Shown here: in pieces, positions 1 through 62,772 of the stretch
Numbering within the stretch: the stretch's first letter is position 1
Layout: each line of letters starts with the position of its first letter
IMG/VR virus record: IMGVR_UViG_3300023719_000001
Location: 1-64,000 of that record
Length of the DNA: 64,000 bases
Source: a virus
Reading direction: 5' to 3' (one strand)
The notes under the pieces: model-generated
Told to the model about the DNA's origin: nothing
Databases searched by the model: none
What the model saw: only the letters and a program-made list of their open reading frames with translations
Made by a program: the position numbers and the translations under genes

Positions 1-33
1 CGAGGATTTCTCCTTTGGTACTCTTTGAAGCCA
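1..33 (-). CDS. hypothetical protein, N-terminal fragment (gene runs off the left window edge; begins MASKSTKGEIL)
   Basis: ATG at 33..31 preceded by AGGAGG 8 nt upstream on the minus strand; ORF continues past position 1. Confidence 0.35.
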
Positions 34-73
34 TGGTAAGACCTCCTGCTTATCTTTGTGAGTTTCAAAATTA

Positions 74-87
74 GGTATATTATACCT
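74..87. promoter_or_regulatory. perfect 13-bp palindrome GGTATAtTATACC (operator-like)
   Basis: inverted repeat read directly; lies in an intergenic region next to the int-proximal repeats. Confidence 0.3.
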
Positions 88-112
88 TACTTCCTACTTT
101 TTTTCAAGATGG

Positions 113-21496: not shown

Positions 21497-21523
21497 GTAT
21501 CCTGTGTTATATAGTTATAGCTA
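21497..21523 (-). promoter_or_regulatory. conserved phage motif copy M1 (GTATCCTGTGTTATATAG[ttatag]CTA)
   Basis: 14 nt upstream of the ligase start; matches the ~21-bp consensus with a 6-nt insertion. Confidence 0.4.
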
Positions 21524-21565
21524 ATAAAGAAAGGCTTGTCGTTACGAGCAAGCCATTCCCTTCTC

Positions 21566-21586
21566 GTATCCTGTATTGTATAGCTA
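21566..21586 (-). promoter_or_regulatory. conserved phage motif copy M2 (GTATCCTGTATTGTATAGCTA)
   Basis: sequence identity to the other copies. Confidence 0.4.
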
Positions 21587-21624
21587 AAGAGAGAATTTTA
21601 AGCCTCCGGGATGGAGACTTTTTG

Positions 21625-21645
21625 TAGCTATATTATACAGGATAC
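21625..21645 (+). promoter_or_regulatory. conserved phage motif copy M3 in inverted orientation (TAGCTATATTATACAGGATAC)
   Basis: forms an inverted repeat with M2; 12 nt downstream of the helicase stop. Confidence 0.4.
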
Positions 21646-21656
21646 GCACATAATTG

Positions 21657-23987
21657 TCAATGATTTTCTGAAAATTCTTTCCGTAAAAATTCCTTCAGGA
21701 ACGTCCGCTTGTATGGAACTCTCGAAGTCTTTACAGCCCGATCAAGAGCGTGAGTTTCGGCGCAAATCACACAATACTTCTTGGCACGAGTGATAGCCGT
21801 ATAGAGCCATTCTCTTGTCAACATCAGATATGCGGAGTTGTCCATGCCAACAATCACATACGGTGCTTCACTGCCCTGCAGCTTATGACAACTCAGAGCA
21901 TAAGCAAGTTCAAGCGTTGCCCAGATGTTATTCCCACCAAAGTAATGAGGAATAAATATCGTGCCCCACTGGTCAAAATCAACCAGAATAAAGCTATTCT
22001 CAATCTTTCGGATAATGCCACGGTTTCCGTTGAACACCGGACACTTCTCTTCCTTTTTCTTTGTCTTGAAATTATATGTATGAAGTTCGTAGTTGTTCTT
22101 GTTGATAATAACCTGATCGCCCTCACGCAGAGTGTACACTCTATCCTTGCCATCACCATAGATTGTGACCTTTGCTTCTGCTTGACCACTACTCGGATTC
22201 ACGATTTCCTGAATAGCATTATTGACTTCATAGGTGCAGATACTGCCACGAAGCTTCTGTGGAAGTACAATCTGAATCTTCGCACTATCATTCCCTACCT
22301 TATTATATAAGGTACGGTACTGATTGATGATGTGGTTGAATGACTCACTTGCATCCTTATAGATATCAAGCTCCAAGTCACGAAGTTCACCACGAACCTC
22401 ATTGCCAGCCCAGCCATAAGGAACCAACTGTGTAGCATTACGAACCTTGATGCTCTCCGTAATAATTGCAGACTTAGCTGCCTGACGATGGATCTTAGTC
22501 AAACGAGCTACAGGAACAACCTTAGATGCAAGCATATCTTTGAAGATGTTGCACATACCGATACTCTCAAGCTGGCCGTCATCACCAATCATGATGAATC
22601 GCTTGCCGGTCTCGATTGCCTGAATCAAGTCATAGAATAACTGAGCTCCAACCATAGAGGTCTCATCCAGAATGATAATGTCTTCTTCAAGAGGATTGCC
22701 CTTGTTATGGACGAAACCACCATTCTCAATATCATAACCAAGAAGACGATGAATGGTCTTACCGTCCTGACCAGTAATCTCCTGCATACGAGCTGCGGCA
22801 CGACCAGAAAGTGCAGTCTGAGCAAAAGACTTACCACGAAGAACCTTTAAGACACCAGCGACAACGGTACTTTTACCGCATCCACCAAGACCTGTGACGA
22901 TAGCAATATTGTTAGAGCATACCTTTTTAATAGCATCTCTCTGCTCTTCAGTGTACTCGATACCAAGTTCATCCTCGGCTTCATTGATTGCTACGTCCAT
23001 ATTTCGACCAATCGGATCAACAGGTGCATCCGCCAGTCGCTTGATTTCCTTTGCGATTTCATCTTCCAGATTCCACACTCTAGTTAAAGCAAATTCCTGA
23101 CGGTCATCACTCCACCAAAGTGTTTCACGGACATCGTGCAGATGGAAAAGTGCCCTTTTGATGACTTCTTGGTCACCCTCATTCAAATCAAGTTCCTTGA
23201 TGCAGCTATTGATTGTCTGGTTTGCCGGGATAATAGAGTTTCCTTCTTCGGCACGGGCAGCAAGAAAATGCATGACGTAAGCTTCGATTCTGAATTGCGA
23301 ATTGTGCTTTAAGCCCATATTCAAAGCAAGAGCATCAGCTTTTTTCCAGCCGATGCCATACACATCGTCAATCAGGACGTAAGGATTCTCTTCAATCTTT
23401 CTCACCAGAGTGTCTGCACCATGATATTGACGGACAAGCTTTTCAATAGCACTAGGGGTCAGACCGTACTCAATTAGCTTTGTGTACGCCTCACTGTTAT
23501 CAATGTTGTTTTCATAAGTATCAATGATCTTTTGAGCTCTGCCTTCCGTAATACCACCAACAGTGCAAAGCGACTTGATATCACCATTCTTGATAATCTC
23601 ATACGGATTTTCGAATGCTTCATAAAGTATCTCAAACTGATGGTCGGTCAGGATATAATGGAGAAAGCTTTTCTGTTCTTCCGGGTCAGTAATCTCTTGA
23701 AACTCATTCATATAAATGATTTTATACTGGTCACCAAACTTTTCATGATGAACATACTCACCACAGAACGAATAAGTTTTATTCATATCGAGGCTAGGAA
23801 CGTTGCCCTTTAACCGGAGGTCACTGTATCGACTCATAACAGGATTTCCCTGCTTGACTTTTACCACCTCGGCAGAGAAAGTGGCGAAGCCGCCGGGCTC
23901 CACCTCCCTCCCATCTTTCGGATAAAAGACTCGTTTTATCCTGATGTAGCAACGGATCATATTTTCATTGAATTTTTTATCTGCCAC
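21657..23987 (-). CDS. RecD-like / Dda-like SF1 DNA helicase
   Basis: 776 aa; Walker A TGLGGCGKST, motif II IIILDETSM, C-terminal SF1 motifs. Confidence 0.8.
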   Translation of the reverse strand: MADKKFNENMIRCYIRIKRVFYPKDGREVEPGGFATFSAEVVKVKQGNPVMSRYSDLRLKGNVPSLDMNKTYSFCGEYVHHEKFGDQYKIIYMNEFQEITDPEEQKSFLHYILTDHQFEILYEAFENPYEIIKNGDIKSLCTVGGITEGRAQKIIDTYENNIDNSEAYTKLIEYGLTPSAIEKLVRQYHGADTLVRKIEENPYVLIDDVYGIGWKKADALALNMGLKHNSQFRIEAYVMHFLAARAEEGNSIIPANQTINSCIKELDLNEGDQEVIKRALFHLHDVRETLWWSDDRQEFALTRVWNLEDEIAKEIKRLADAPVDPIGRNMDVAINEAEDELGIEYTEEQRDAIKKVCSNNIAIVTGLGGCGKSTVVAGVLKVLRGKSFAQTALSGRAAARMQEITGQDGKTIHRLLGYDIENGGFVHNKGNPLEEDIIILDETSMVGAQLFYDLIQAIETGKRFIMIGDDGQLESIGMCNIFKDMLASKVVPVARLTKIHRQAAKSAIITESIKVRNATQLVPYGWAGNEVRGELRDLELDIYKDASESFNHIINQYRTLYNKVGNDSAKIQIVLPQKLRGSICTYEVNNAIQEIVNPSSGQAEAKVTIYGDGKDRVYTLREGDQVIINKNNYELHTYNFKTKKKEEKCPVFNGNRGIIRKIENSFILVDFDQWGTIFIPHYFGGNNIWATLELAYALSCHKLQGSEAPYVIVGMDNSAYLMLTREWLYTAITRAKKYCVICAETHALDRAVKTSRVPYKRTFLKEFLRKEFSENH

Positions 23988-36052: not shown

Positions 36053-36073
36053 GTATCCTGTATTGCATAGCTA
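36053..36073 (-). promoter_or_regulatory. conserved phage motif copy M4 (GTATCCTGTATTGCATAGCTA)
   Basis: 15 nt upstream of the gene start at 36037. Confidence 0.4.
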
Positions 36074-39028: not shown

Positions 39029-40505
39029 TTATCCTCCTTGCTTTTCTGGAAAATGCTCCTTAGTTACTGCAACGCAGAACGGTTCGATTTCAGATCCCCA
39101 GATAGCAGTACCATCACCATACGTACTTTCAAAGACAAGCGGAAAGCCACCAATCCCATCGAATAGACTGCCAAGCGTAGGATTTTCACCAATATACGGC
39201 TTCATCTTCTGGCAAATCCAGTACCACTGCGGTAACGCAATCGAATTGCCGAGAGCCTTATAACGAGCTGCGTCAGAAGTCTTGTGCTTCTTCCCATTCT
39301 CATCGATCCAGTCACCGATATCAGTCCATCCGTCAGGGAAACCCTGTAACCGTTCATCCTCCAAAGGAGTCAAGCGGCGAACAATCCATCGTAGATTCTT
39401 AGTTTCCTTCTCTGCAATCAGGTCAGTAGCGTCCTTATAATCACGAGATTTCATCGTGCTGGCGTGTTCGCTTTCCTTGTACTCACCAATGCGCTGCATT
39501 GCAAAGGCTTTCTTTTCAACGACCAGCGGCATATTATTACCGCCCGTTCCCCACTGAGCAGTACAAGTCGGACTTGTATCACCCTGCTGAGTGTATCGAG
39601 CGTCCTGACTGTGACTCTCAAATACCACCGGTGAAATCTTTTGTTTTGAATTATGTAATGATGGATTTTCTACCAAGCAAATTAGCGTCTGGTCTTGCAA
39701 CGTAGAAATCGTTGCGCTCAATTCAGTTTGAACCAGAGCGCCTTTACCTCCGCCTTCACATCCAGAACGGATTTTTAGAGTGTAGGCTGCAGGTTCTGTG
39801 CATCGAGTCGAAGTCTCTCGATGGTCTGACTCCAATACTCGTCCAATTCCTTCTCTTCCAGACCTTCTTGTTCCTTCACTTTCTGCACCACCTGTGACAG
39901 AGTTCCTGGATTCCACCATTCGATCATATCCAGCAACGCTTGCTTCAGGAGTTCGGGCAAAGGTTTTCCACGCCGGGATGCTCTCACAAGAATCCCCTGA
40001 CATGCTCGTGCGCTCAAATAGAATTTCTGAGGCACGTTGTCCTCCAAAATCCATGACAAGCGCGATTCTCTGGCGGCGCTGGGCGACTCCCCAGTATTTA
40101 GCGTCGAACAATCTCCATGCAAGAGACCATCCATTACCGGAAATCGCTCCAGATTTTTCCCACTTTCCGTTCTTTCCTGAAGGTCGAGGAATTGAAACGT
40201 CTGGCTCGACAATGCGTGCAAATCTTTCCAACACACATCTGAAGTCTTCACCTTTGCTTGAGCTGAAAGCTCCTCTGACATTTTCCCAGATTGCGAATTT
40301 TGGATATTCTCCATTAGTGGCCTCCCTCATTTCTGTAATCACACGAATCATTTCAAGGAACAATCCAGAGCGTTCACCAGCCAAACCTTCACGTTTACCG
40401 GCCTGACTCAAATCTTGGCATGGACTGCCTCCTGTGATACAGGAAACCGGTTCAATCTGCCATCCATGAAGTTGTGTAATATCTCCGTAATGCTTCAGTT
40501 TTCAT
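39029..40505 (-). CDS. DNA (cytosine-5)-methyltransferase, circularly permuted; leader ATG at 40505 is out of frame by +1 and an in-frame TGA lies between them
   Basis: hand translation gives HYGDIT (III), GGSPCQDLSQAGKREG (IV), FAIWENV (VI), QRRQRIALV (VIII), TRD SPTCTAQWGTGGNN, RRLTPLEDERLQGFPD (IX), KALGNSIALPQ (X), then C-terminal FDGIGGF (I) + SEIEPFCVAVTKEHFPE; region ~50% GC. Confidence 0.6.
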
Positions 40506-40516
40506 CCCTCCTTTTC

Positions 40517-40537
40517 GTATCCTGTATTATATAGCTA
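40517..40537 (-). promoter_or_regulatory. conserved phage motif copy M5 (GTATCCTGTATTATATAGCTA)
   Basis: immediately upstream of the GGAGGG RBS and ATG of the C5-MTase leader. Confidence 0.4.
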
Positions 40538-40641
40538 AAACTCAGAAAATGAGCGAAAAAATAATAGACGTATCAACGTCATATTATTTCGTCGCCTATA
40601 AAACAAAAGATTTAGCAGATTTTATGTATGCCCTATCGGGC

Positions 40642-40718
40642 TGGTGGGACAGGAGAGATTTGAACTCCCGACCAAGCGGTTATGAGCCGCCAGCTCTGAC
40701 CAACTGAGCTACTATCCC
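40642..40718 (-). tRNA. tRNA-Met (anticodon CAT; elongator Met or Ile2-type), CCA encoded
   Basis: cloverleaf folded by hand: acceptor GGGATAG/CTGTCCC, D-arm GCTC..GAGC, anticodon loop CTCATAA, T-loop TTCAAAT. Confidence 0.8.
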
Positions 40719-40908
40719 ATAAAAACCAGTTAAACAGCTGCAACTATTCAACTGGGCACCTTCCTTATAAAACACTATTGCATCTATATCATATAGACGA
40801 GGAAGGAATAACAGCGATGCACATTTCCTATATCTCGCCCCTTTCGGGGTAGTATTTCGCACAGGCGCGGCCGGGACTGACCGCTTAAAATCCCTACCCA
40901 TACGAAAT

Positions 40909-40983
40909 TGGAGCAGCGAAAGGTAGTCGAAACCTCATCCTCAGCTTGGAAGGCTGATATACTAGCCGTTGTACGACCGCTGC
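40909..40983 (-). tRNA. tRNA-Gly (anticodon TCC), CCA encoded
   Basis: acceptor GCAGCGG/TCGCTGC, anticodon stem-loop TCAGC-CTTCCAA-GCTGA, T-loop TTCGACT. Confidence 0.7.
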
Positions 40984-41089
40984 ATGAGAACCCAGCTTAC
41001 AAAGCACTACTGCACCATCACTGGCGAGCCGGGAATAATAGTGGCAATCAAAGGAGATCAACAAACGGTACGCAACCATTCTATGACCG

Positions 41090-41171
41090 TGGTGCGGATA
41101 GTGGGCATCGAACCCACACGCTAAAGCACCAGAGCCTAAATCTGGCGTGTCTGCCATTCCACCATATCCGC
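41090..41171 (-). tRNA. tRNA-Leu (anticodon TAG), type II, CCA encoded
   Basis: acceptor GCGGATA/TATCCGC, anticodon loop TTTAGGC, long variable arm, T-arm GTGGG-TTCGATG-CCCAC. Confidence 0.8.
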
Positions 41172-41176
41172 ATAAA

Positions 41177-41247
41177 TTGCGCCAACAGGGGTCGAACCTG
41201 TGATGGAGGAGTCAAAGTCCTCTGCCTTACCGCTTGGCGATGGCGCA
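41177..41247 (-). tRNA. tRNA-Gln (anticodon TTG), no encoded CCA
   Basis: U1-A72 acceptor TGCGCCA/TGGCGCA, anticodon loop CTTTGAC, T-arm ACAGG-TTCGACC-CCTGT. Confidence 0.75.
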
Positions 41248-41314
41248 TCATGTACCCAGCTTACTGGAGAATAATCCTACTGCCTTACTATTAAGGAGCT
41301 GGGAATAATAGGAA

Positions 41315-41390
41315 TTGGTCCGAGTGACAGGTCATGATCCTGCGGCCTCATGCTCCCAAAGCACGCGCTCTTCCAACTGAGCTACACCCG
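41315..41390 (-). tRNA. tRNA-Pro (anticodon TGG), CCA encoded; atypical T-loop
   Basis: acceptor CCGGGTG/CACTCGG, D-arm GCTC-AGTTGGAA-GAGC, anticodon loop TTTGGGA; T-loop ATCATGA is unusual. Confidence 0.6.
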
Positions 41391-41397
41391 GATATCA

Positions 41398-41480
41398 GTG
41401 CTACCAGCGGGGGTCGAACCCGCACGTCTTTCGACATCGGTTTTTAAGACCGAAGCGTACTGCCTATTTCGCCATGGTAG
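41398..41480 (-). tRNA. tRNA-Leu (anticodon TAA), type II, no encoded CCA
   Basis: acceptor GCTACCA/TGGTAGC, anticodon stem-loop TCGGT-CTTAAAA-ACCGA, long variable arm, T-arm GCGGG-TTCGACC-CCCGC. Confidence 0.8.
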
Positions 41481-41562
41481 CATATAAAAGCTGTCTGTCC
41501 AGCAGTCAATCGTCTTTCCGATTTGCCAGTTGAGTTTGCCATCCGCTCATCTACACATGAGC

Positions 41563-41646
41563 TGGTAGGGATAGAGGGATTCGGACCCTCACGTCTCTCG
41601 ACACTGGGACTTGAAACCAGCGTGGCTGCCATTTCACCATATCCCC
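41563..41646 (-). tRNA. tRNA-Leu (anticodon CAA), type II, CCA encoded
   Basis: aligns with the Leu(TAG) copy; anticodon loop TTCAAGT, one 31-39 mismatch, G1-U72 wobble. Confidence 0.65.
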
Positions 41647-41712: not shown

Positions 41713-42381
41713 TTACTCATTACCAAGCGTATCAGCGATATCCTTGAAGTCATTCCACTTGATTTTGACAATTACTCGATTACCTCTGCGGTCTTTCAAC
41801 TCAACCTTTGGACGACCAACCAGACCTTCCATATAAATGTCATCAATCGAAACCGTAGACTTCGGATGTTGACACACAAACTTGATACCGTCTCGAATCG
41901 TCCCTGTAAACAAAATAGGAACTACTTGGATACCAAACATCTGAGCAGTCTTTTCAACCCACTCTCTACTCTGGTAGTTATCACCAATCAGGACATCGAA
42001 CAAGATGAACCACTCATCAGGTCAGTATCCATGACCACATCCTTGAATTTTGCCACCATAACCCTCTCCAAAGAGGATTACTTCTTTATCACCGTAAGTC
42101 TGTTCAAACAATTCCTCTGCTTCAGAAGTACCGAAAATTTCATTTAGTGCATTCAGCAGATTCTTTGGAAGTTCTGCACGTTCAGTTCGTCCGGCAAAGC
42201 TGACTTTATGACCGTCCCAGCAAACACGCACATTCGTGCCATCCACTTTCTCAGTAAATTCCCACTCATTATTTTGTAGGAACTCAATGGTTTCATTACG
42301 AAAATCACCGATAATCAGCTTTTTAGTGCCTTCGATATCACGATTAAACACCGTTTCGATTTTTTCGTAGGTTTTCATCAA
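41713..42381 (-). CDS. Rnl2-like RNA ligase interrupted by a single in-frame TGA (at 42022-42024)
   Basis: motif I EKVDGTN, motif III ILFGEGYGG, then ...GHGY-TGA-PDEWFILFDVLIGD (motif IIIa), motif IV EGLVGRP, motif V IVKIKWNDF; both halves verified by hand to be in the same frame. Confidence 0.6.
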
Positions 42382-44949: not shown

Positions 44950-44970
44950 GTATCCTGTATTATATATCTA
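44950..44970 (-). promoter_or_regulatory. conserved phage motif copy M6 (GTATCCTGTATTATATATCTA)
   Basis: ~30 nt upstream of the 690-aa gene start. Confidence 0.4.
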
Positions 44971-45005
44971 ACGTATTAAAATCAAGGAGCCGAAGCCCCC
45001 TGTTT

Positions 45006-45932
45006 TTAATTTTTATGGAAATATTCGACCCAACCTTTGTATCCTTGTCTGAAGCTAATGTAGGCAACCTTGCTACACTTTCTTCCGATAATGTCTGCAA
45101 GAGGGTCTTTACCATTTCCGAAACTAAGTTCTGCAAGATTAAATTCTGGATTATTCTTACAGTAGTCGTAGACCTTCACGTATTCGCCGTTTCTGGTTAG
45201 ATGCCTTCGATCTAAAGCCTTTGAGTGATATCTTTTTTCGAGGATGTTATTCAACCGCATAAAATAGGTATGAATTGTATGCACAGACATCTTTGGGTCA
45301 CTGTCTGCACCGATACTATCCTCGGTTTTACGAATGATGTAATCACCATTCATGACATAGAATGCCCTATACCCTCCCTTATTGGGAGCGTCATACTGTT
45401 TCATTTCATAACACTGCTTAATAATATCCATCAACTTTGCATCAACACCTGTCTTATCAAGAACAGTACAAGATTCAAAATCGACATCGTTAATCGTCAG
45501 GTTAGAAACTTCTTCAGAAGTAAGGCCAATCCAGTACAGTGCAGCAATCACGTTCATACGAATCTGATATGGCTCTTCATACTTATTTAAGAAGTCAACA
45601 AACTCATCAACTGATGCAAAGTATTTATCCGCATACATATTGTCTGCGCTTACATCGCTCTCTGAAAAGTCAGCCAGATCATACATGCTTGTTTTGTTTT
45701 CGCTTTTGATGTAGCCTGTGATTATTGACTTCACATTTTTAAACGAACGACTCGAGTTCACCCAATTATATTTGGCAAACATCTTTACGAAATCATCTTT
45801 TGTGAAGTCAAACAACTCATACCCACGCTCAGCCTCGTAACCCAGAACATGGTTAAGCGTCGATACAACAAACTCACCGCTTCTATCAGAATACTTTTCA
45901 GCAAAAGCTTTGATCTTTTCTTCAGTAAGCAT
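45006..45932 (-). CDS. putative site-specific (tyrosine) recombinase-like protein, weak
   Basis: 308 aa; C-terminal HTIHTYFMRL...RR...VAYISFRQGY weakly resembles box II of the integrase family; hairpin plus T-run follows the stop. Confidence 0.3.
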   Translation of the reverse strand: MLTEEKIKAFAEKYSDRSGEFVVSTLNHVLGYEAERGYELFDFTKDDFVKMFAKYNWVNSSRSFKNVKSIITGYIKSENKTSMYDLADFSESDVSADNMYADKYFASVDEFVDFLNKYEEPYQIRMNVIAALYWIGLTSEEVSNLTINDVDFESCTVLDKTGVDAKLMDIIKQCYEMKQYDAPNKGGYRAFYVMNGDYIIRKTEDSIGADSDPKMSVHTIHTYFMRLNNILEKRYHSKALDRRHLTRNGEYVKVYDYCKNNPEFNLAELSFGNGKDPLADIIGRKCSKVAYISFRQGYKGWVEYFHKN

Positions 45933-45985: not shown

Positions 45986-46405
45986 TCAAGCAAATGCGGC
46001 AAAATTTTGAAATTCCATGGTATGTTGTACGCCGCTCAGGAATGCTGCGAGTAAAAACGGTTCATCCTTGCATCTTGCCATTGCGATCATATTCATATGA
46101 CGCTCAGACAAGACACCAAGCTTTTTGATGAACTGTCCTTTGTTAAGTGTATCAGTCTCTTCACAAAGAACGATACTATCAACCTCTAGGAAATCGCAGT
46201 CTTCTTTCGAGAGTAGAACATGAACCGGAGAACGCTTGTATATTCTGGAAGACAACGGATTCCCTTTGATTGTGGGACTGAAGAAGTTGCGCTTGTTGTT
46301 GCTTGTCACAACGAACGGTCGAATACCGCGCTGCTGATGACCTGTTGCATTGGACAAATCGACCAACCAAACCTCTCCGACCTTTGGGTCAATATTGTTG
46401 TCCAT
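45986..46405 (-). CDS. MazF/PemK-family endoribonuclease toxin
   Basis: 139 aa; VGEVWLVDLSNATGHQQRGIRPFVVTS and DTLNKGQFIKKLGVLSERHMNMIAMA match the MazF fold signature; no MazE-like ORF directly upstream. Confidence 0.7.
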   Translation of the reverse strand: MDNNIDPKVGEVWLVDLSNATGHQQRGIRPFVVTSNNKRNFFSPTIKGNPLSSRIYKRSPVHVLLSKEDCDFLEVDSIVLCEETDTLNKGQFIKKLGVLSERHMNMIAMARCKDEPFLLAAFLSGVQHTMEFQNFAAFA

Positions 46406-46441: not shown

Positions 46442-46462
46442 TAGCTATATTATACAGGATAC
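46442..46462 (+). promoter_or_regulatory. conserved phage motif copy M7, inverted orientation (TAGCTATATTATACAGGATAC)
   Basis: lies between the MazF start and the stop of the upstream gene. Confidence 0.4.
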
Positions 46463-46496
46463 CATTTCAGAAGTCAAGAGGTTTTTGAAAATATTT

Positions 46497-46841: not shown

Positions 46842-46864
46842 TCATTTAGACAACTTTCAAGATA

Positions 46865-46892
46865 TATTATACACATCTTTTTGTTTTAGTCA
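46865..46892 (-). promoter_or_regulatory. sigma70-type promoter (-35 TTGACT, 16-nt spacer, -10 TATAAT) within a duplicated TATATTATACA(C)ATCTTTTTGTT element
   Basis: read on the minus strand ~20 nt upstream of the gene start at 46841; second partial copy at 46893-46915. Confidence 0.5.
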
Positions 46893-46947
46893 ATATATTA
46901 TACATCTTTTTGTTGTTGTAAAAGTTTAAAATTTTAGATGATGCCAT

Positions 46948-60798: not shown

Positions 60799-60801
60799 AA
60801 T

Positions 60802-61068
60802 TCATTCTCCTCTTTCCATTCCGTCGCAACTTCCAACAATTCTATCAATCATTTCCATATACTCTCCGAATGTTTTGCATTTCACTTCCACTCCAAAACA
60901 AGCTGCATAAACAACCAAAGAGTCATTACTTGCCACATAATTACATTCGTGCCACCAGTCATAAAGCATGGAATCAACACTGCCAGAAATAACTCTACTG
61001 TTGCCATTATCATCCTTAACAATTACTACACAGTCGTCCAGAACGTCATTAAAAAGCAACATATTCAT
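60802..61068 (-). CDS. hypothetical protein
   Basis: 88-aa ORF. Confidence 0.35.
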   Translation of the reverse strand: MNMLLFNDVLDDCVVIVKDDNGNSRVISGSVDSMLYDWWHECNYVASNDSLVVYAACFGVEVKCKTFGEYMEMIDRIVGSCDGMERGE

Positions 61069-61080
61069 TCTCCTTTACTC

Positions 61081-61338
61081 TTACTCTGCAATCATCATAG
61101 CGAGAACTGGTTCACCGGAATCTTTCAGCTGAAGTTCCAGAATGCCGCCGTCATCCACAATCTCACACTTGCTTAGATAATCCTGAAGAAAGAACATCTG
61201 ACATTCCTGCCAAAAGATTTCTTTCGGATCTTCGTCCTCATCTACGAATACATTCTTATGATGAAAAGATTCATTCCAAACCCAACCAACACCATCAAAA
61301 CAAGCGTGAAGTTCCCTCAGATCCCACATAATCATCAC
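61081..61338 (-). CDS. MWDL-family small protein, divergent copy 5
   Basis: begins (MMI)MWDLRELH; tandem with four closer paralogs. Confidence 0.4.
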   Translation of the reverse strand: MMIMWDLRELHACFDGVGWVWNESFHHKNVFVDEDEDPKEIFWQECQMFFLQDYLSKCEIVDDGGILELQLKDSGEPVLAMMIAE

Positions 61339-61558
61339 TCCTTAAAACTCCAGTTTTTCTTAGTTCTTTCACGAGCACTTCCTCGATATCCTCTTTTTCA
61401 TTTTCTGAAACGTTAAGATGATAAAAAACACGAATTGAATTGTACAACCGCTTACACACATACATAACATCGAAATAGTATTTATCATTCGTGTTGAACA
61501 TCAAAGCGTGGCCAGTACCATCTTCTTTATGGTAATTGTTTTCAATTAAATCCCACAT
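61295..61558 (-). CDS. MWDL-family small protein, copy 4
   Basis: MWDLIENNYHKEDGTGHAL...; paralog alignment. Confidence 0.45.
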   Translation of the reverse strand: MWDLIENNYHKEDGTGHALMFNTNDKYYFDVMYVCKRLYNSIRVFYHLNVSENEKEDIEEVLVKELRKTGVLRSDDYVGSEGTSRLF

Positions 61559-61561
61559 AAT

Positions 61562-61783
61562 TTAAACTCCGTAATTCTTATTCAAATCTTCAAAAAGAAG
61601 GTCTCGAATTTCATCCATATGATCTTCGTCAATTTCATACGGCTTATAAATCATAATGCAGTAGTCCATAACAAGATACATAACCGAATATCCATACGAG
61701 TTTCCATCATCTTCTTTATATCTAAACTCTGCACAGCCAAATTTGTGATCTTCTGCATATTCGTTTGCAATTAAAACCCACAT
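61562..61783 (-). CDS. MWDL-family small protein, copy 3
   Basis: MWVLIANEYAEDHKFGCAEF... Confidence 0.45.
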   Translation of the reverse strand: MWVLIANEYAEDHKFGCAEFRYKEDDGNSYGYSVMYLVMDYCIMIYKPYEIDEDHMDEIRDLLFEDLNKNYGV

Positions 61784-61785
61784 AA

Positions 61786-62022
61786 TCAGTCCTCCCCAAA
61801 AATATGACGCTTGCTAAGGTCATCATAAATAATATCCTCAATTTTATTTTTGGTATTATCATCGAGTTCTCCGTAAGGAGCATCATCAAGATAATAGAAG
61901 TAAATTTCATTTCCAAGGTTCTTGTACATGACACTTACATAAAACCCAGCTGAAATTCCATTCAGTAAAGCATATCCAATACCGTACACTTCTGAATAAT
62001 TGTTACCCATTAAATCCCACAT
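61786..62022 (-). CDS. MWDL-family small protein, copy 2
   Basis: MWDLMGNNYSEVYGIGYAL... Confidence 0.45.
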   Translation of the reverse strand: MWDLMGNNYSEVYGIGYALLNGISAGFYVSVMYKNLGNEIYFYYLDDAPYGELDDNTKNKIEDIIYDDLSKRHIFGED

Positions 62023-62024
62023 AG

Positions 62025-62255
62025 TTAGTCCTCAAAAGTTTTAGAACGTCTTAAAATAATAATTTCTTTCATTTCTTCTTTATCTCTTGCGGTAGCAAAA
62101 GTGATAGAGAAAGAATACTCTGGATAATAAAAAGAAACACAAAAATCAAACACTACATACATGATTGTAAGGTAATGACCTGTTTGTTTGTTCTTGAATT
62201 TTGCTCTTCCGATTTTATATTCTTCAGAGTATCTATCTTCAATTAAATCCCACAT
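62025..62255 (-). CDS. MWDL-family small protein, copy 1
   Basis: MWDLIEDRYSEEYKIGRAKF...; 2-3 nt intergenic gaps along the array. Confidence 0.45.
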   Translation of the reverse strand: MWDLIEDRYSEEYKIGRAKFKNKQTGHYLTIMYVVFDFCVSFYYPEYSFSITFATARDKEEMKEIIILRRSKTFED

Positions 62256-62259
62256 TTTA

Positions 62260-62772
62260 TCACCTCAAAATCTCCTTGAGCATCTTTACCATACCTTCGT
62301 AATCTTTATCATCGGCACCCAGCATACGAACCGTCATATCAAAATCAACTGTCTGACAATCACTGAAATCGTATTGTTCAATATCATTACTACAAGTGTC
62401 AGGGTAATGTTCTTCGAGCCGGTCTTTCGTACCACAGTCACAGAAGGTTCCAGAATAATAATCACTGGCCGACTCACCTGTTTTCATGTACACACGGATA
62501 CCATCTGTGACAATCACTTTAGCGAACCGCTTCATATCTTCTGGCGTAAAGGTCTTATCCATAACATCATACGAATAGACCATGTAACAAGTTTTATCAG
62601 GCTCATAAATATCCTGTTCCTTATCTGCACCAAACGCTCTAGCGTATCCACCAGCCCATCCACCACAAAACACAAGAATTTCTTTTCCCGCTTCGATAGC
62701 TGCCATATATTCCTCTTCAGGAATCGCTACAATTCTTCCGTTAGGAAAAATAAAACCTTCAAATTCTCTCAT
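62260..62772 (-). CDS. hypothetical protein
   Basis: 170-aa ORF. Confidence 0.4.
   Translation of the reverse strand: MREFEGFIFPNGRIVAIPEEEYMAAIEAGKEILVFCGGWAGGYARAFGADKEQDIYEPDKTCYMVYSYDVMDKTFTPEDMKRFAKVIVTDGIRVYMKTGESASDYYSGTFCDCGTKDRLEEHYPDTCSNDIEQYDFSDCQTVDFDMTVRMLGADDKDYEGMVKMLKEILR

Follow-up and report, generated by a model that had tools for sequence, protein, structure and literature searches.

Genomic context of the locus

The stretch of DNA under analysis (64,000 nucleotides, hereafter the window) is part of an integrated temperate SPbeta-like prophage of Faecalibacterium, approximately 130 kb in size; members of this genus are among the most abundant commensals of the human gut. 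Genes for an integrase and Xis are present, and the prophage junction adjoins the integrase at window position ~65. The genes for DnaB, primase, RecJ and PolIII were found by tblastn to be collinear with yorI-yorL, and a match to yosS was also obtained. The best match of PolIII was to that of Clostridium phage Amboise (47% amino-acid identity), and megablast of 8 kb against the phages in GenBank returned no match. Rfam searches revealed only tRNA arrays in the window and its relatives; neither the long leaders at the divergent locus described below nor the host loci gave a match.

A search for a phage-encoded RNA polymerase or sigma factor gene had been advised in the original prediction. The phage family does possess a polymerase gene, located outside the window directly 3' of one copy of the repeated box that is the subject of this study: its product, a protein of 927 aa, is a YonO homologue (Pfam RdRP, 4.8e-14; 24% identity over 509 aa, E = 2e-22). 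Within the window, neither a T7-like polymerase nor a sigma factor was detected with Pfam and PHROGs among the large genes and 87 small ORFs, the latter joined as polyproteins. “Serglycin” matches obtained in the polyprotein scan were an artefact of the GS linkers.

Distribution and conservation of the 21-bp box

Seven copies of the sequence TAGCTATAYAATACAGGATAC, each with two mismatches at most, are spread over 25 kb of the window:

21497-21517, minus strand: box M1, TAACTATATAACACAGGATAC, 2 mismatches; co-oriented with the genes, 13 nt 5' of the ligase ATG
21566-21586, minus strand: box M2, 0 mismatches; co-oriented, ~40-60 nt 3' of the start inferred for the promoter at 21660-21632
21625-21645, plus strand: box M3, 1 mismatch; inverted relative to the genes, 11 nt beyond the helicase stop
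36053-36073, minus strand: box M4, 1 mismatch; co-oriented, 15 nt 5' of the 97-aa gene, within a 49-bp gap
40517-40537, minus strand: box M5, 0 mismatches; co-oriented, 3' of the tRNA-array terminator and 11 nt 5' of the ATG of a 17-codon ORF
44950-44970, minus strand: box M6, 1 mismatch; co-oriented, 30 nt 5' of the 690-aa gene
46442-46462, plus strand: box M7, 1 mismatch; inverted relative to the genes, 34 nt beyond the stop of the 114-aa gene

All seven copies had been recognised beforehand, at these coordinates and on these strands. The first of them was originally drawn as 21497-21523; the box proper occupies 21497-21517, and the remainder is an extra TAGCTA (21518-21523) ahead of M1, a 6-bp partial duplication (TAGCTA-TAACTA-TATAAC...). 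The positions assigned to the copies relative to the genes were right as well, and it should be added that the C5-methyltransferase frame itself starts further 3' than the 17-codon ORF that follows M5. The 97-aa gene preceded by M4 is the first one of the Sak4/DnaB/primase/RecJ/PolIII operon.

No chance matches to the box were obtained in 100 dinucleotide-preserving shuffles. Moreover, the window has no sites at three to six mismatches from the box, the next best having seven, and the box is therefore a discrete class. It was the only long multi-copy motif found in the window, and a k-mer search of 47 kb of Amboise sequence revealed no analogous repeated box. A role as attachment site was dismissed, the junction at window position ~65 being unrelated to the box.

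In more than 80 related contigs (120-140 kb) the box occurs at the same eight loci, with approximately 12 copies per genome. All eight belong to the early, regulatory and replication region and span ~57 kb in the relatives; no further conserved locus was found elsewhere in these contigs, and a genome-wide distribution is thus not supported. Among 223 distinct instances from the relatives the edges of the box are sharp, and two conserved blocks were distinguished: TAGCTA (positions 1-6) and A-Y-ACAGGATAC (positions 11-21). The least conserved positions (7, 9, 10 and 12) lie within the central TATAAT. The box is asymmetric over its 21 bp, with no dyad symmetry and with unlike TAGCTA and ACAGGATAC blocks. 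When co-evolution of the box and its reader was considered, rare changes inside the conserved blocks (A20G, G3A, T1C) proved to be distributed over various sites and not concerted within genomes, and the box is unchanged in a relative whose repressor-like protein (see below) is only 73% identical.

Host-type promoters overlapped by the box

Only five promoters with at least 11 of the 12 consensus positions were found in the window. Two of these hold the inverted copies M3 and M7, and the one at M3 is the sole 12/12 match:

21632-21660, minus strand: sigma-A-type promoter TTGACA-17-TATAAT (12/12 consensus), directed towards the ligase; the -10 coincides with the centre of M3, and the -35 and the helicase stop codon overlap
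46449-46477, minus strand: sigma-A-type promoter TTGACT-17-TATAAT (11/12 consensus), directed towards the MazF-like/repressor-like operon; the -10 coincides with the centre of M7

On the gene strand, M3 covers about -20 to +1 of the ligase-directed promoter. TTGACA or TTGACT stands exactly 17 bp from the in-box -10 in every distinct relative (38/38 for the promoter at M3 and 14/14 for that at M7), i.e. the -35 of box-covered promoters was kept in 52/52. Overlap of box and promoter was seen not only at M3 and M7, but also at the early-operon head, immediately past the right end of the window, where it is again in register, and at the divergent locus. In the relatives, the latter has a TTGAAT-17-TGgTATAAT promoter inside the 38-bp spacer between two boxes, and this promoter reads through the box set just 3' of its inferred start. 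No recognisable promoter was found at M1, M2, M4, M5, M6 or the copy 5' of the YonO-like gene; in the window, boxes go together with sigma-A hexamers at 17 ± 1 bp solely at the two inverted copies, on the strand opposite to the box.

It had been suggested that the inverted copies could drive antisense transcripts or act as bidirectional terminators. Both ideas had to be given up, as both copies are in register within near-consensus sigma-A promoters firing in the gene direction.

A candidate repressor and a proposed operator model

The promoter covered by M7 is the start of an operon with the following two genes:

45986-46405, minus strand: PemK/MazF-like gene (PF02452, 3.8e-19), which opens the operon shared with the repressor-like gene
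45006-45932, minus strand: gene for an integrase-fold protein of 308 aa, MrpR/YopR/SroF-like as judged from Pfam profiles and a fold search; its product is the candidate reader of the box

The 308-aa protein scored 19.1 bits with the Pfam profile MrpR_N_CB, below the cut-off of 27, and a 78%-identical homologue scored 27.7 bits; precomputed matches to MrpR_C_cat are recorded in most homologues. A Foldseek search against PDB, conducted with a mediocre structural model (pLDDT 65, TM about 0.3), placed the phi3T SroF-DNA structure (9rd5, E = 1e-4) and the SroF-Sar complex (9rgl) at the top, followed by Cre, YopR (8bj6) and MrpR (8a0a). Alignment with YopR by hhalign was not significant, nor did direct sequence comparison with PDB chains or YopR produce anything significant. 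Where recombinases carry the catalytic GLR, this protein has GLT, the catalytic arginine being lost. Profiles and predicted fold point to a distant relative of MrpR/YopR/SroF of SPbeta and phi3T, the similarity in sequence being weak.

We consider it probable (roughly 0.6) that the box is the operator of this integrase-fold repressor encoded by the prophage itself. Protein and box are connected by circumstantial evidence, and we infer both the binding of the box by the 308-aa protein and the repression exerted through it. A regulator-binding site was one of the alternatives named in the original prediction, and it is favoured here over a phage-specific promoter.

In the operator model, a repressor monomer would clamp the asymmetric box, reading TAGCTA and ACAGGATAC across the AT-rich centre. 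At three loci (M3, M7 and the start of the early operon), positions -20 to +1 of a strong sigma-A promoter lie under the box, so that the bound repressor would block the host RNA polymerase there; at M7, ahead of the operon of the repressor-like gene itself, this would amount to autoregulation. The model would also take in a fourth locus, where two boxes flank a sigma-A-type promoter in the divergent region beside the YonO-like RNA polymerase genes. It should be added that seven or eight of the 12 copies overlap no recognisable host-type promoter, which speaks against an operator.

Co-oriented copies and their surroundings

The remaining copies all point along the direction of transcription; each has a terminator-like hairpin on its 5' side and a ribosome-binding site as the next element on its 3' side. 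The following hairpins were noted in the window:

21533-21554, minus strand: hairpin H2 in the ligase leader, within the M2-M1 interval, GGCUUGCUCGUAACGACAAGCC then UUUCUUUAUU; -14.4 kcal/mol, z = -4.0
21600-21620, minus strand: hairpin H1 in the 38-bp M3-M2 spacer; -11.1 kcal/mol in the gene-strand RNA versus -6.1 kcal/mol in the plus-strand RNA
40567-40580, minus strand: terminator-like hairpin, GACGTTGATACGTC plus T-run, 3' of tRNA-Met and just 5' of M5
44983-45002, minus strand: intrinsic-terminator-like hairpin, CAGGGGGCTTCGGCTCCTTG plus ATTTT, which closes the repressor-like operon just 5' of M6

H2 looks like a terminator or attenuator. The view that the copies mark points of transcription control is supported. 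Under the operator model the co-oriented copies would be extra operators or roadblocks, silencing the replication genes and the YonO-like gene in the lysogen, and they may retain weak promoter activity. A good functional model for them is offered by gp71 of mycobacteriophage L5 (cluster A), which has an asymmetric operator and “stoperators” in many copies, one of them over the early lytic promoter; the stoperators lie in short intergenic gaps along transcription, where elongation is blocked once the repressor is bound. In L5, however, the site has a length of 13 bp and is present ~30 times per 52-kb genome, and gp71 is a helix-turn-helix protein; neither protein nor site is homologous to those considered here.

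The same arrangement raises objections to an operator: several copies follow terminator-like hairpins, where a promoter would be expected, and strict co-orientation together with closeness to ribosome-binding sites suits a promoter just as well. The box could accordingly be read as the promoter of the YonO-like single-polypeptide RNA polymerase or of other phage-specific transcription machinery, with co-oriented copies restarting transcription past terminators and inverted ones shutting off the overlapping host-type promoters via occlusion or head-on transcription. Indeed, the family has a YonO homologue with one box immediately 5' of its gene, and nine copies run along transcription 11-30 nt before ribosome-binding sites, often just past terminator-like hairpins. 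The contiguous conservation over 21 bp also resembles the promoters of single-subunit polymerases (T7/T3/SP6 class), in which a contiguous stretch of ~20 bp is conserved directly 5' of genes and often past terminators, and no sequence contradiction arises, as no YonO promoter consensus has been published (PMC5467207). In SPbeta, however, YonO transcribes the late structural operon only, from one start upstream of yonK (PMC5467207), whereas here no box occurs in the 9 kb that follow the YonO-like gene in one contig, and its copies are restricted to early, regulatory and replication genes, the late genes having none. Furthermore, three of the 12 copies face against the genes and coincide with host-type promoters, the YonO-like gene would need its own product for its expression, and a T7-like polymerase or sigma factor was not found among the window proteins scanned. 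We therefore regard this explanation as unlikely.

A combination with two readers is likewise unlikely: the integrase-fold repressor would occupy the boxes in the lysogen, and after induction the YonO-like two-barrel polymerase would use the co-oriented copies as promoters, the inverted ones silencing the overlapping host-type early promoters. If true, this would provide the first promoter consensus for the YonO-like polymerase class. More generally, if the box serves the YonO-like polymerase, the question of promoter recognition by minimal two-barrel polymerases is opened.

The centre of the box had also been read as a -10-type promoter element, and a related explanation holds that the co-oriented boxes are “-10 only” early or middle promoters of the host polymerase, possibly helped by an activator and with no repressor involved. 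In the window M5 and M6 do read TATAAT and M2 reads TACAAT, the DNA 5' of the boxes is T-rich, and the SPbeta repressor site (SPBRE) is itself within a TAGACA-17-TATAAT promoter just before a ribosome-binding site. Against this, conservation within the box is lowest at the hexamer, the last position of which is C instead of T in 61 of the 223 instances. At orthologous co-oriented sites the hexamer drifts to TATAAC, TGAAAC or CGTGAC, with TAGCTA and ACAGGATAC fixed; most relatives have TATAAC, TATGAC or CGTGAC at the centre of M6 itself. Neither a -35 nor an extended -10 TG accompanies the co-oriented copies, the most strongly conserved part (ACAGGATAC) is 3' of the hexamer, where sigma-A reads little, and the inverted copies use the opposite strand. 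The -10 reading of the box is not supported on these grounds, and promoters of the “-10 only” kind are, in our estimate, very improbable.

Inverted pairs

As had been noticed earlier, M2 and M3 form an inverted pair with a 38-bp spacer. It is one of three such pairs in the phage genomes, with fixed spacing of 59-61 bp and spacers of 38-40 bp, a regularity that monomers acting independently do not explain and that thus counts against the operator model. It would be in favour of a function as RNA or DNA structure, be it a site of mRNA processing or translation control, a hairpin or cruciform of M2 and M3, origin iterons, or an invertible promoter switch. For structures of this kind one may also cite the transcription of co-oriented copies into leaders just 5' of ribosome-binding sites, the adjacent gene of a MazF-like RNase, the clustering of three copies within 150 bp in the replication module, and the fact that one of the pairs encloses a promoter.

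Several observations weigh against it. M3 and M7 would be located almost wholly 5' of the inferred starts and hence be missing from those transcripts. A long selected hairpin or origin at M2/M3, as suggested in the original prediction, was discarded because the arms do not co-vary: identity within pairs averages 18.8/21 versus 19.0 between loci, and perfect pairs number 0 of 64; the hairpin in between folds better on the gene strand. The same lack of covariation ruled out a cruciform. Iterons of a replication origin were rejected as well, the copies being dispersed (over 25 kb in the window and ~57 kb in relatives), the orientation within the cluster mixed, and the cumulative GC skew monotonic through it. 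An invertible switch was rejected because the orientation of the spacer relative to its flanks is constant (25/25 distinct relatives at the divergent locus, 38/38 at the helicase-ligase locus and the early-operon head), and a 38-bp spacer is too short for recombinase synapsis. A purely structural role of the box hence appears exceedingly unlikely.

Comparison with the SPbeta family

To our knowledge, integrase-fold master repressors that act as monomers on long asymmetric boxes were described in 2023-2025 and only in Bacillus phages of the SPbeta family. MrpR binds SPBRE at ten promoter regions (PMC10516654), and SroF is a monomer on a 26-bp asymmetric box with multiple sites across the genome (bioRxiv 10.1101/2025.11.27.690993). 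For the comparison we derived SPBRE as (TAGACA)AATACAAATAATATGTATA(TAAT).

In both cases a long non-palindromic box is dispersed in ~10-12 copies over intergenic and promoter regions of a ~130-kb temperate phage, with a phage-encoded, catalytically dead integrase-fold protein (MrpR = YopR = SroF in the SPbeta family) and a box at the operon of this protein; M7 at the repressor-like operon parallels SPBRE at the SPbeta yopM-yopR (sroA-F) operon. Moreover, the boxes match the SPBRE positions at yorE (the position of M4), yorM and yonP, and boxes are found in both cases at the head of the Sak4/DnaB/RecJ/PolIII operon, after the polymerase and 5' of the YonO gene. Many boxes abut a ribosome-binding site, here as in SPbeta.

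There are also differences. The sequence of the present box is unrelated to SPBRE and the phi3T box: SPbeta has no site within five mismatches of it and no box-like sequence, including the region upstream of yonK. The boxes of SPbeta and phi3T differ from one another too, so that similarity of box sequence is not strictly defining. In SPbeta, the conserved part falls in the -35/-10 spacer of same-strand promoters, whereas here it extends from 6 bp 5' to 9 bp 3' of the hexamer; unlike in SPbeta, the clear promoters use the box in reverse, most same-strand copies are without a promoter, and three inverted pairs with fixed spacing of 59-61 bp are present. The host is Faecalibacterium (Clostridia) and not Bacillus, and the likeness of the protein to MrpR/SroF is that of the fold or of a weak profile match only.

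These data suggest the same design, i.e. a repressor with dispersed boxes and a YonO-type polymerase, in a very common prophage of Faecalibacterium. The case for SPbeta-type regulation is a well-supported analogy and no new principle. Apart from this, the locus yields a precisely delimited box of 21 bp, two candidate target promoters with mapped positions, and the gene for a candidate repressor.

A copy of the box at the host aroD gene

The two-block box with a variable centre is also present in the chromosomal aroD leader in genomes of about ten Faecalibacterium species; there it follows a TTGACA-17-TATTAT promoter, 12 nt 3' of its -10 (inferred positions +6 to +26). These genomes have no other copy of the box and thus carry no such prophage. 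The host sites were found by an exact pattern, and their apparent conservation is therefore biased by the search.

Host aroD may, with low probability, also be controlled by the prophage repressor or by a host factor sharing the box, and the presence of the site in prophage-free genomes, where the reader could be a host factor, is a further point against the operator model. The box would then be a regulator site of Faecalibacterium copied by the phage, which would tie its early transcription to host physiology, and the MrpR-like protein would bind elsewhere. Sites of host factors in phage control regions have precedent, e.g. those of LexA and Spo0A. Repressor sites of phages in host genes have precedent too: an operator-like site of lambda CI at host pckA places a prophage repressor at a host metabolic gene, as the aroD box would do, although the host site here is found in prophage-free genomes. 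Furthermore, one host site per genome, its conservation subject to the bias just mentioned, stands against ~12 near-perfect phage sites, and the window offers no alternative multi-copy motif to the MrpR-like protein, whose relatives use at least ten dispersed long boxes. A borrowed host regulator site is for these reasons considered improbable. If the box does control host aroD, the question of prophage control over host metabolism is opened.

Two matches to the box in Faecalibacterium that fall inside a long coding frame were taken as chance. The leader of an rRNA operon next to the host aroD box, identified by eye from the sequence, accounts for the contig ends in this area.

Occurrence and distribution of the box

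The 21-bp repeat (hereafter, the box) was searched for in the window with TAGCTATAYAATACAGGATAC at up to three mismatches, and exactly seven sites were returned, five on the minus and two on the plus strand. These were the seven sites listed in the original prediction and no others, and the shuffled sequence gave no match. Loosening the window search to seven mismatches added no site with three to six mismatches, and the box was the sole long multi-copy word within the window. Every window gene is on the minus strand, so that five copies run with transcription (co-oriented) and two against it.

Copies of the box in the window and its conserved loci in related contigs
21497-21517 (-), M1, helicase-ligase locus, present in many genomes
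21566-21586 (-), M2, helicase-ligase locus
21625-21645 (+), M3, helicase-ligase locus, inverted
36053-36073 (-), M4, single-copy locus
40517-40537 (-), M5, single-copy locus
44950-44970 (-), M6, single-copy locus
46442-46462 (+), M7, single-copy locus, inverted
About 2.7 kb past the window's right end, early-operon head, inverted pair
5.5-7.8 kb beyond the early-operon head pair, divergent control region, inverted pair
Immediately upstream of the YonO-like gene, one box

Across 223 distinct instances from relatives the edges of the box were sharp, TAGCTA (positions 1-6) and A-Y-ACAGGATAC (11-21) were near-invariant, and positions 7, 9, 10 and 12, i.e. the 'TATAAT', varied most; this profile is biased by the exact-pattern search, although the pattern was identical in the approximately half of the instances recovered solely through proximity to a seed. 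Clustering of flanks in the relatives gave eight conserved loci with about 12 copies per genome, and a second scan with the box centre left free added no conserved locus; the box is therefore restricted to about 57 kb of DNA with early, regulatory and replication functions. Neither the remainder of the relatives' contigs nor window positions 1-21,000 yielded a copy, so that the scan does not bear out a genome-wide motif.

Accessory cargo varies among relatives at box-bounded positions, and the boxes seem to mark module boundaries: a ToxN-type toxin gene lies between the two upstream inverted pairs (relative L009:5108-5605), and M6 and M5 enclose a TnpB/Cas12f-like gene (relative L122:12936-14225).

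Inverted copies overlap host-type promoters

On the gene strand M3 reads caTTGACAattatgtgcGTATCCTGTATAATatagcta and M7 cTTGACTtctgaaatgGTATCCTGTATAATatagcta. In both, the box centre is a TATAAT, with a -35 hexamer placed exactly 17 bp away. The M3 promoter was the only 12/12 site in a promoter scan of 20-24 kb, the M7 promoter was one of two 11/12 sites in 35-48 kb, and the two are among five sites reaching 11/12 in the whole window on both strands. Among the relatives, all 38 distinct sequences of the M3/early-operon class had the -35 at 17 bp, as did all 14 of the M7 class, and the hexamer was conserved amid variable neighbours in the alignments; no other site class had a -35 on either strand. 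The M3, M7 and early-operon copies are predicted from these sequences to cover approximately -20 to +1 of strong host-type promoters, which point to the ligase, the early operon and the operon of a MazF-like gene and a 308-aa protein. The inverted copies had been proposed to drive antisense transcripts or to act as terminators; the conserved -35 at 17 bp from the box-centre TATAAT, in gene direction, argues against both. In the divergent locus, a TTGAAT-17-TGgTATAAT promoter is situated within the 38-bp spacer between two boxes and runs through one of them toward the YonO-like side.

In all three inverted pairs the spacing stays at 59-61 bp despite differing spacers. The arms do not co-vary (identity 18.8/21 within pairs vs 19.0 between loci) and a flipped spacer was never seen in the relatives; a selected hairpin, which the original prediction had suggested for M2 and M3, and an invertible switch were thus rejected.

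Two tandem sigma-A-type promoters (TTTACA-16-TATAAT and TTGACT-16-TATAAT) are located at 46860-46925, upstream of a 114-aa gene; a direct repeat, ACAAAAAGATGT(G)TATAATATAT, surrounds each of them, and the box is absent from both; they are candidate unregulated promoters where the repressor region begins. In relatives, long untranslated stretches of about 150-300 nt follow both divergent-region boxes (L009:1-420, 500-680; L018:1935-2195). Both contain ...CCAGACAGGGC... and neither matched an Rfam family; they are possible small RNAs or structured leaders, and recall the large non-coding stretch of SPbeta between yonN and yonK.

Co-oriented copies and the YonO-like polymerase

All copies not overlapping a promoter are co-oriented with transcription. 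They have neither a -35 nor an extended -10, and occupy very short intergenic gaps, typically past a terminator-like hairpin and 11-30 nt ahead of a start codon. The last position of the central hexamer is C in 61/223 instances, and orthologous sites carry TATAAC, TATGAC, TGAAAC and, in one relative, CGTGAC with the flanking blocks intact. Judged from these alignments, the hexamer of co-oriented copies is not constrained as a -10; being the most variable part of a box that here lacks a -35, it does not fit a -10-type promoter.

Of the phage RNA polymerase or sigma factor to which such promoters had been tentatively ascribed, the family does encode a polymerase, just outside the window. It is a 927-aa homologue of YonO, the single-polypeptide RNA polymerase of SPbeta (relative L018:5577-8360), with a Pfam RdRP match (4.8e-14) and 24% identity to YonO along 509 residues (E = 2e-22). 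That the box is a promoter for this polymerase is the main rival explanation; the position of boxes after terminators and the strict co-orientation of nine copies agree with it, but the distribution of the sites does not, and in SPbeta YonO transcribes the late operon only, from one start with an undefined promoter (PMC5467207). We consider it unlikely.

The seven-tRNA array (Met, Gly, Leu x3, Gln, Pro; gene strand, 40642-41646) is followed by a terminator and then M5, past which (window 40351-40540) the first ATG opens a 17-codon ORF only. The C5-methyltransferase frame starts without ATG at the PC motif region (..GGSPCQDLSQAG..) and its Pfam alignment begins only at profile position 74; the N-terminal SAM-binding motif I appears, from the sequence, to be missing or encoded elsewhere, and the gene may be split, permuted or frameshift-using.

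A candidate repressor and its relation to SPbeta

The gene at 45006-45932 (-) encodes the 308-aa protein, which is integrase-like by PHROGs and has no significant Pfam integrase domain. The MrpR_N_CB profile scored 19.1 bits against it and 27.7 bits, at the cut-off, against a 78%-identical homologue, and most homologues have a precomputed MrpR_C_cat match. Its AlphaFold model, of moderate quality (pLDDT 65), matched best among solved structures to DNA-bound phi3T SroF (E = 1e-4), followed by the SroF-antirepressor complex and then Cre, YopR and MrpR. The GLR of recombinases, which includes their catalytic arginine, is replaced by GLT. Compared directly by sequence, the protein and YopR showed no significant similarity, and the kinship is therefore distant. 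The gene lies downstream of the MazF-like gene in an operon that starts at the M7-covered promoter and ends with a hairpin, followed by M6.

MrpR (= YopR = SroF) is the SPbeta master repressor, with a tyrosine-recombinase fold whose catalysis is lost, and binds its repeated element SPBRE at ten promoter regions, including those of its own operon, aimR, yorE, yorM and yonP (PMC10516654). In phi3T, the SroF monomer encircles a 26-bp asymmetric box, of which 24 bp are read, and its sites are multiple across the genome (bioRxiv 10.1101/2025.11.27.690993). We located SPBRE in the SPbeta genome inside TAGACA-17-TATAAT promoters or directly abutting the ribosome-binding site, at positions that correspond to those of several boxes: heading the Sak4/DnaB/RecJ/PolIII operon, past the polymerase, and upstream of yonP-yonO. 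The prophage box and SPBRE have no common sequence, and their placement relative to the -10 differs.

The best-supported reading, to which we assign a probability of roughly 60%, takes the box to be an operator bound by an MrpR/SroF-like repressor; we infer that the 308-aa protein binds it and that binding represses. Between the phage promoter and the regulator-binding site originally proposed, the latter is favoured and the former is less supported. The bound box would occlude strong host-type promoters at three loci, among them the promoter from which the repressor-like gene's own operon starts. A fourth locus has a promoter flanked by two boxes, and the remaining sites would serve as co-directional secondary operators or roadblocks. 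The latter role would be functionally analogous to the 'stoperators' of mycobacteriophage L5. On this reading, the locus would add a distant relative, from the prophage of an abundant gut commensal, to a kind of repressor/box system described only recently.

A box in the host aroD leader

Scanning one genome per bacterial species placed the box in the leader of chromosomal aroD, the type I 3-dehydroquinase gene (Pfam DHquinase_I, 7.6e-66), of about ten species of Faecalibacterium; outside this genus it had no conserved context.

Loci with the box in the aroD leader
L134:234-254, F. prausnitzii ATCC 27768
L128, L129, L131, L133, L138, L140, L141, L143 and L150, about nine other loci

The TAGCTA and ACAGGATAC blocks are fixed and the centre variable, constancy here being no measure of conservation as the sites were found by exact pattern. 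Inverted relative to the gene, the box follows a TTGACA-17-TATTAT promoter, 12 nt past its -10 (inferred +6..+26). No second copy occurs in these genomes, which are therefore taken to be without the prophage. Either the prophage repressor would also target a host gene, or a host factor would read the box; box reading by a host factor, with which its presence in genomes without the prophage agrees, is in our estimate very unlikely. The box would be of high interest only if the YonO-like polymerase proved to use it as a promoter, or if it connected the phage to host metabolism. Contig ends near the aroD box are attributed not to the phage but to an adjacent, divergent upstream sequence that by eye resembles the leader of an rRNA operon.

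Prophage identity and additional observations

The window encodes a ligase, RecD2-type helicase, PolIII alpha, RecJ, primase, DnaB and Sak4-like protein, together with the C5-methyltransferase, NrdD and what PHROGs names a thymidylate synthase; it also has seven tRNAs, an excisionase gene and three genes of integrase type. Its replication block is collinear with SPbeta yorI-yorL. The closest GenBank phage showed just 47% identity in PolIII; in IMG/VR, many contigs of 120-140 kb share 85-95% identity with the window. Several lines show an integrated prophage: contigs with an identical integrase run on into chromosomal genes of 63% G+C, one contig with a circularised phage junction sets the host/phage boundary near window position 65, and Fmt, a host protein encoded in the flank, shares 84-85% identity with proteins that carry the name Faecalibacterium prausnitzii.

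Past the YonO-like gene, L018 encodes a 251-aa product, a ClpP-like protease, PhoH and a metallophosphoesterase, and then has another tRNA array, also of seven genes. Paralogous small early genes at 60800-62260, with products starting MWDL..., have in common the 14-mer ATGTGGGATTTAAT, which occurs three times. The RNA-ligase-like gene at 41713-42381 is seemingly split into ORFs of 96 and 119 aa, of which only the upstream 119-aa ORF gives a Pfam RNA_ligase match; relative L122 has an intact 221-aa RNA ligase, and the split gene may be a frameshift or pseudogene. Window 1-110 starts with host DNA, and from its phage side a minus-strand TTGAAA-17-TATAAT promoter (107->79) is directed into a host carboxyltransferase gene (ATG ~34-32), whose promoter the prophage may supply.
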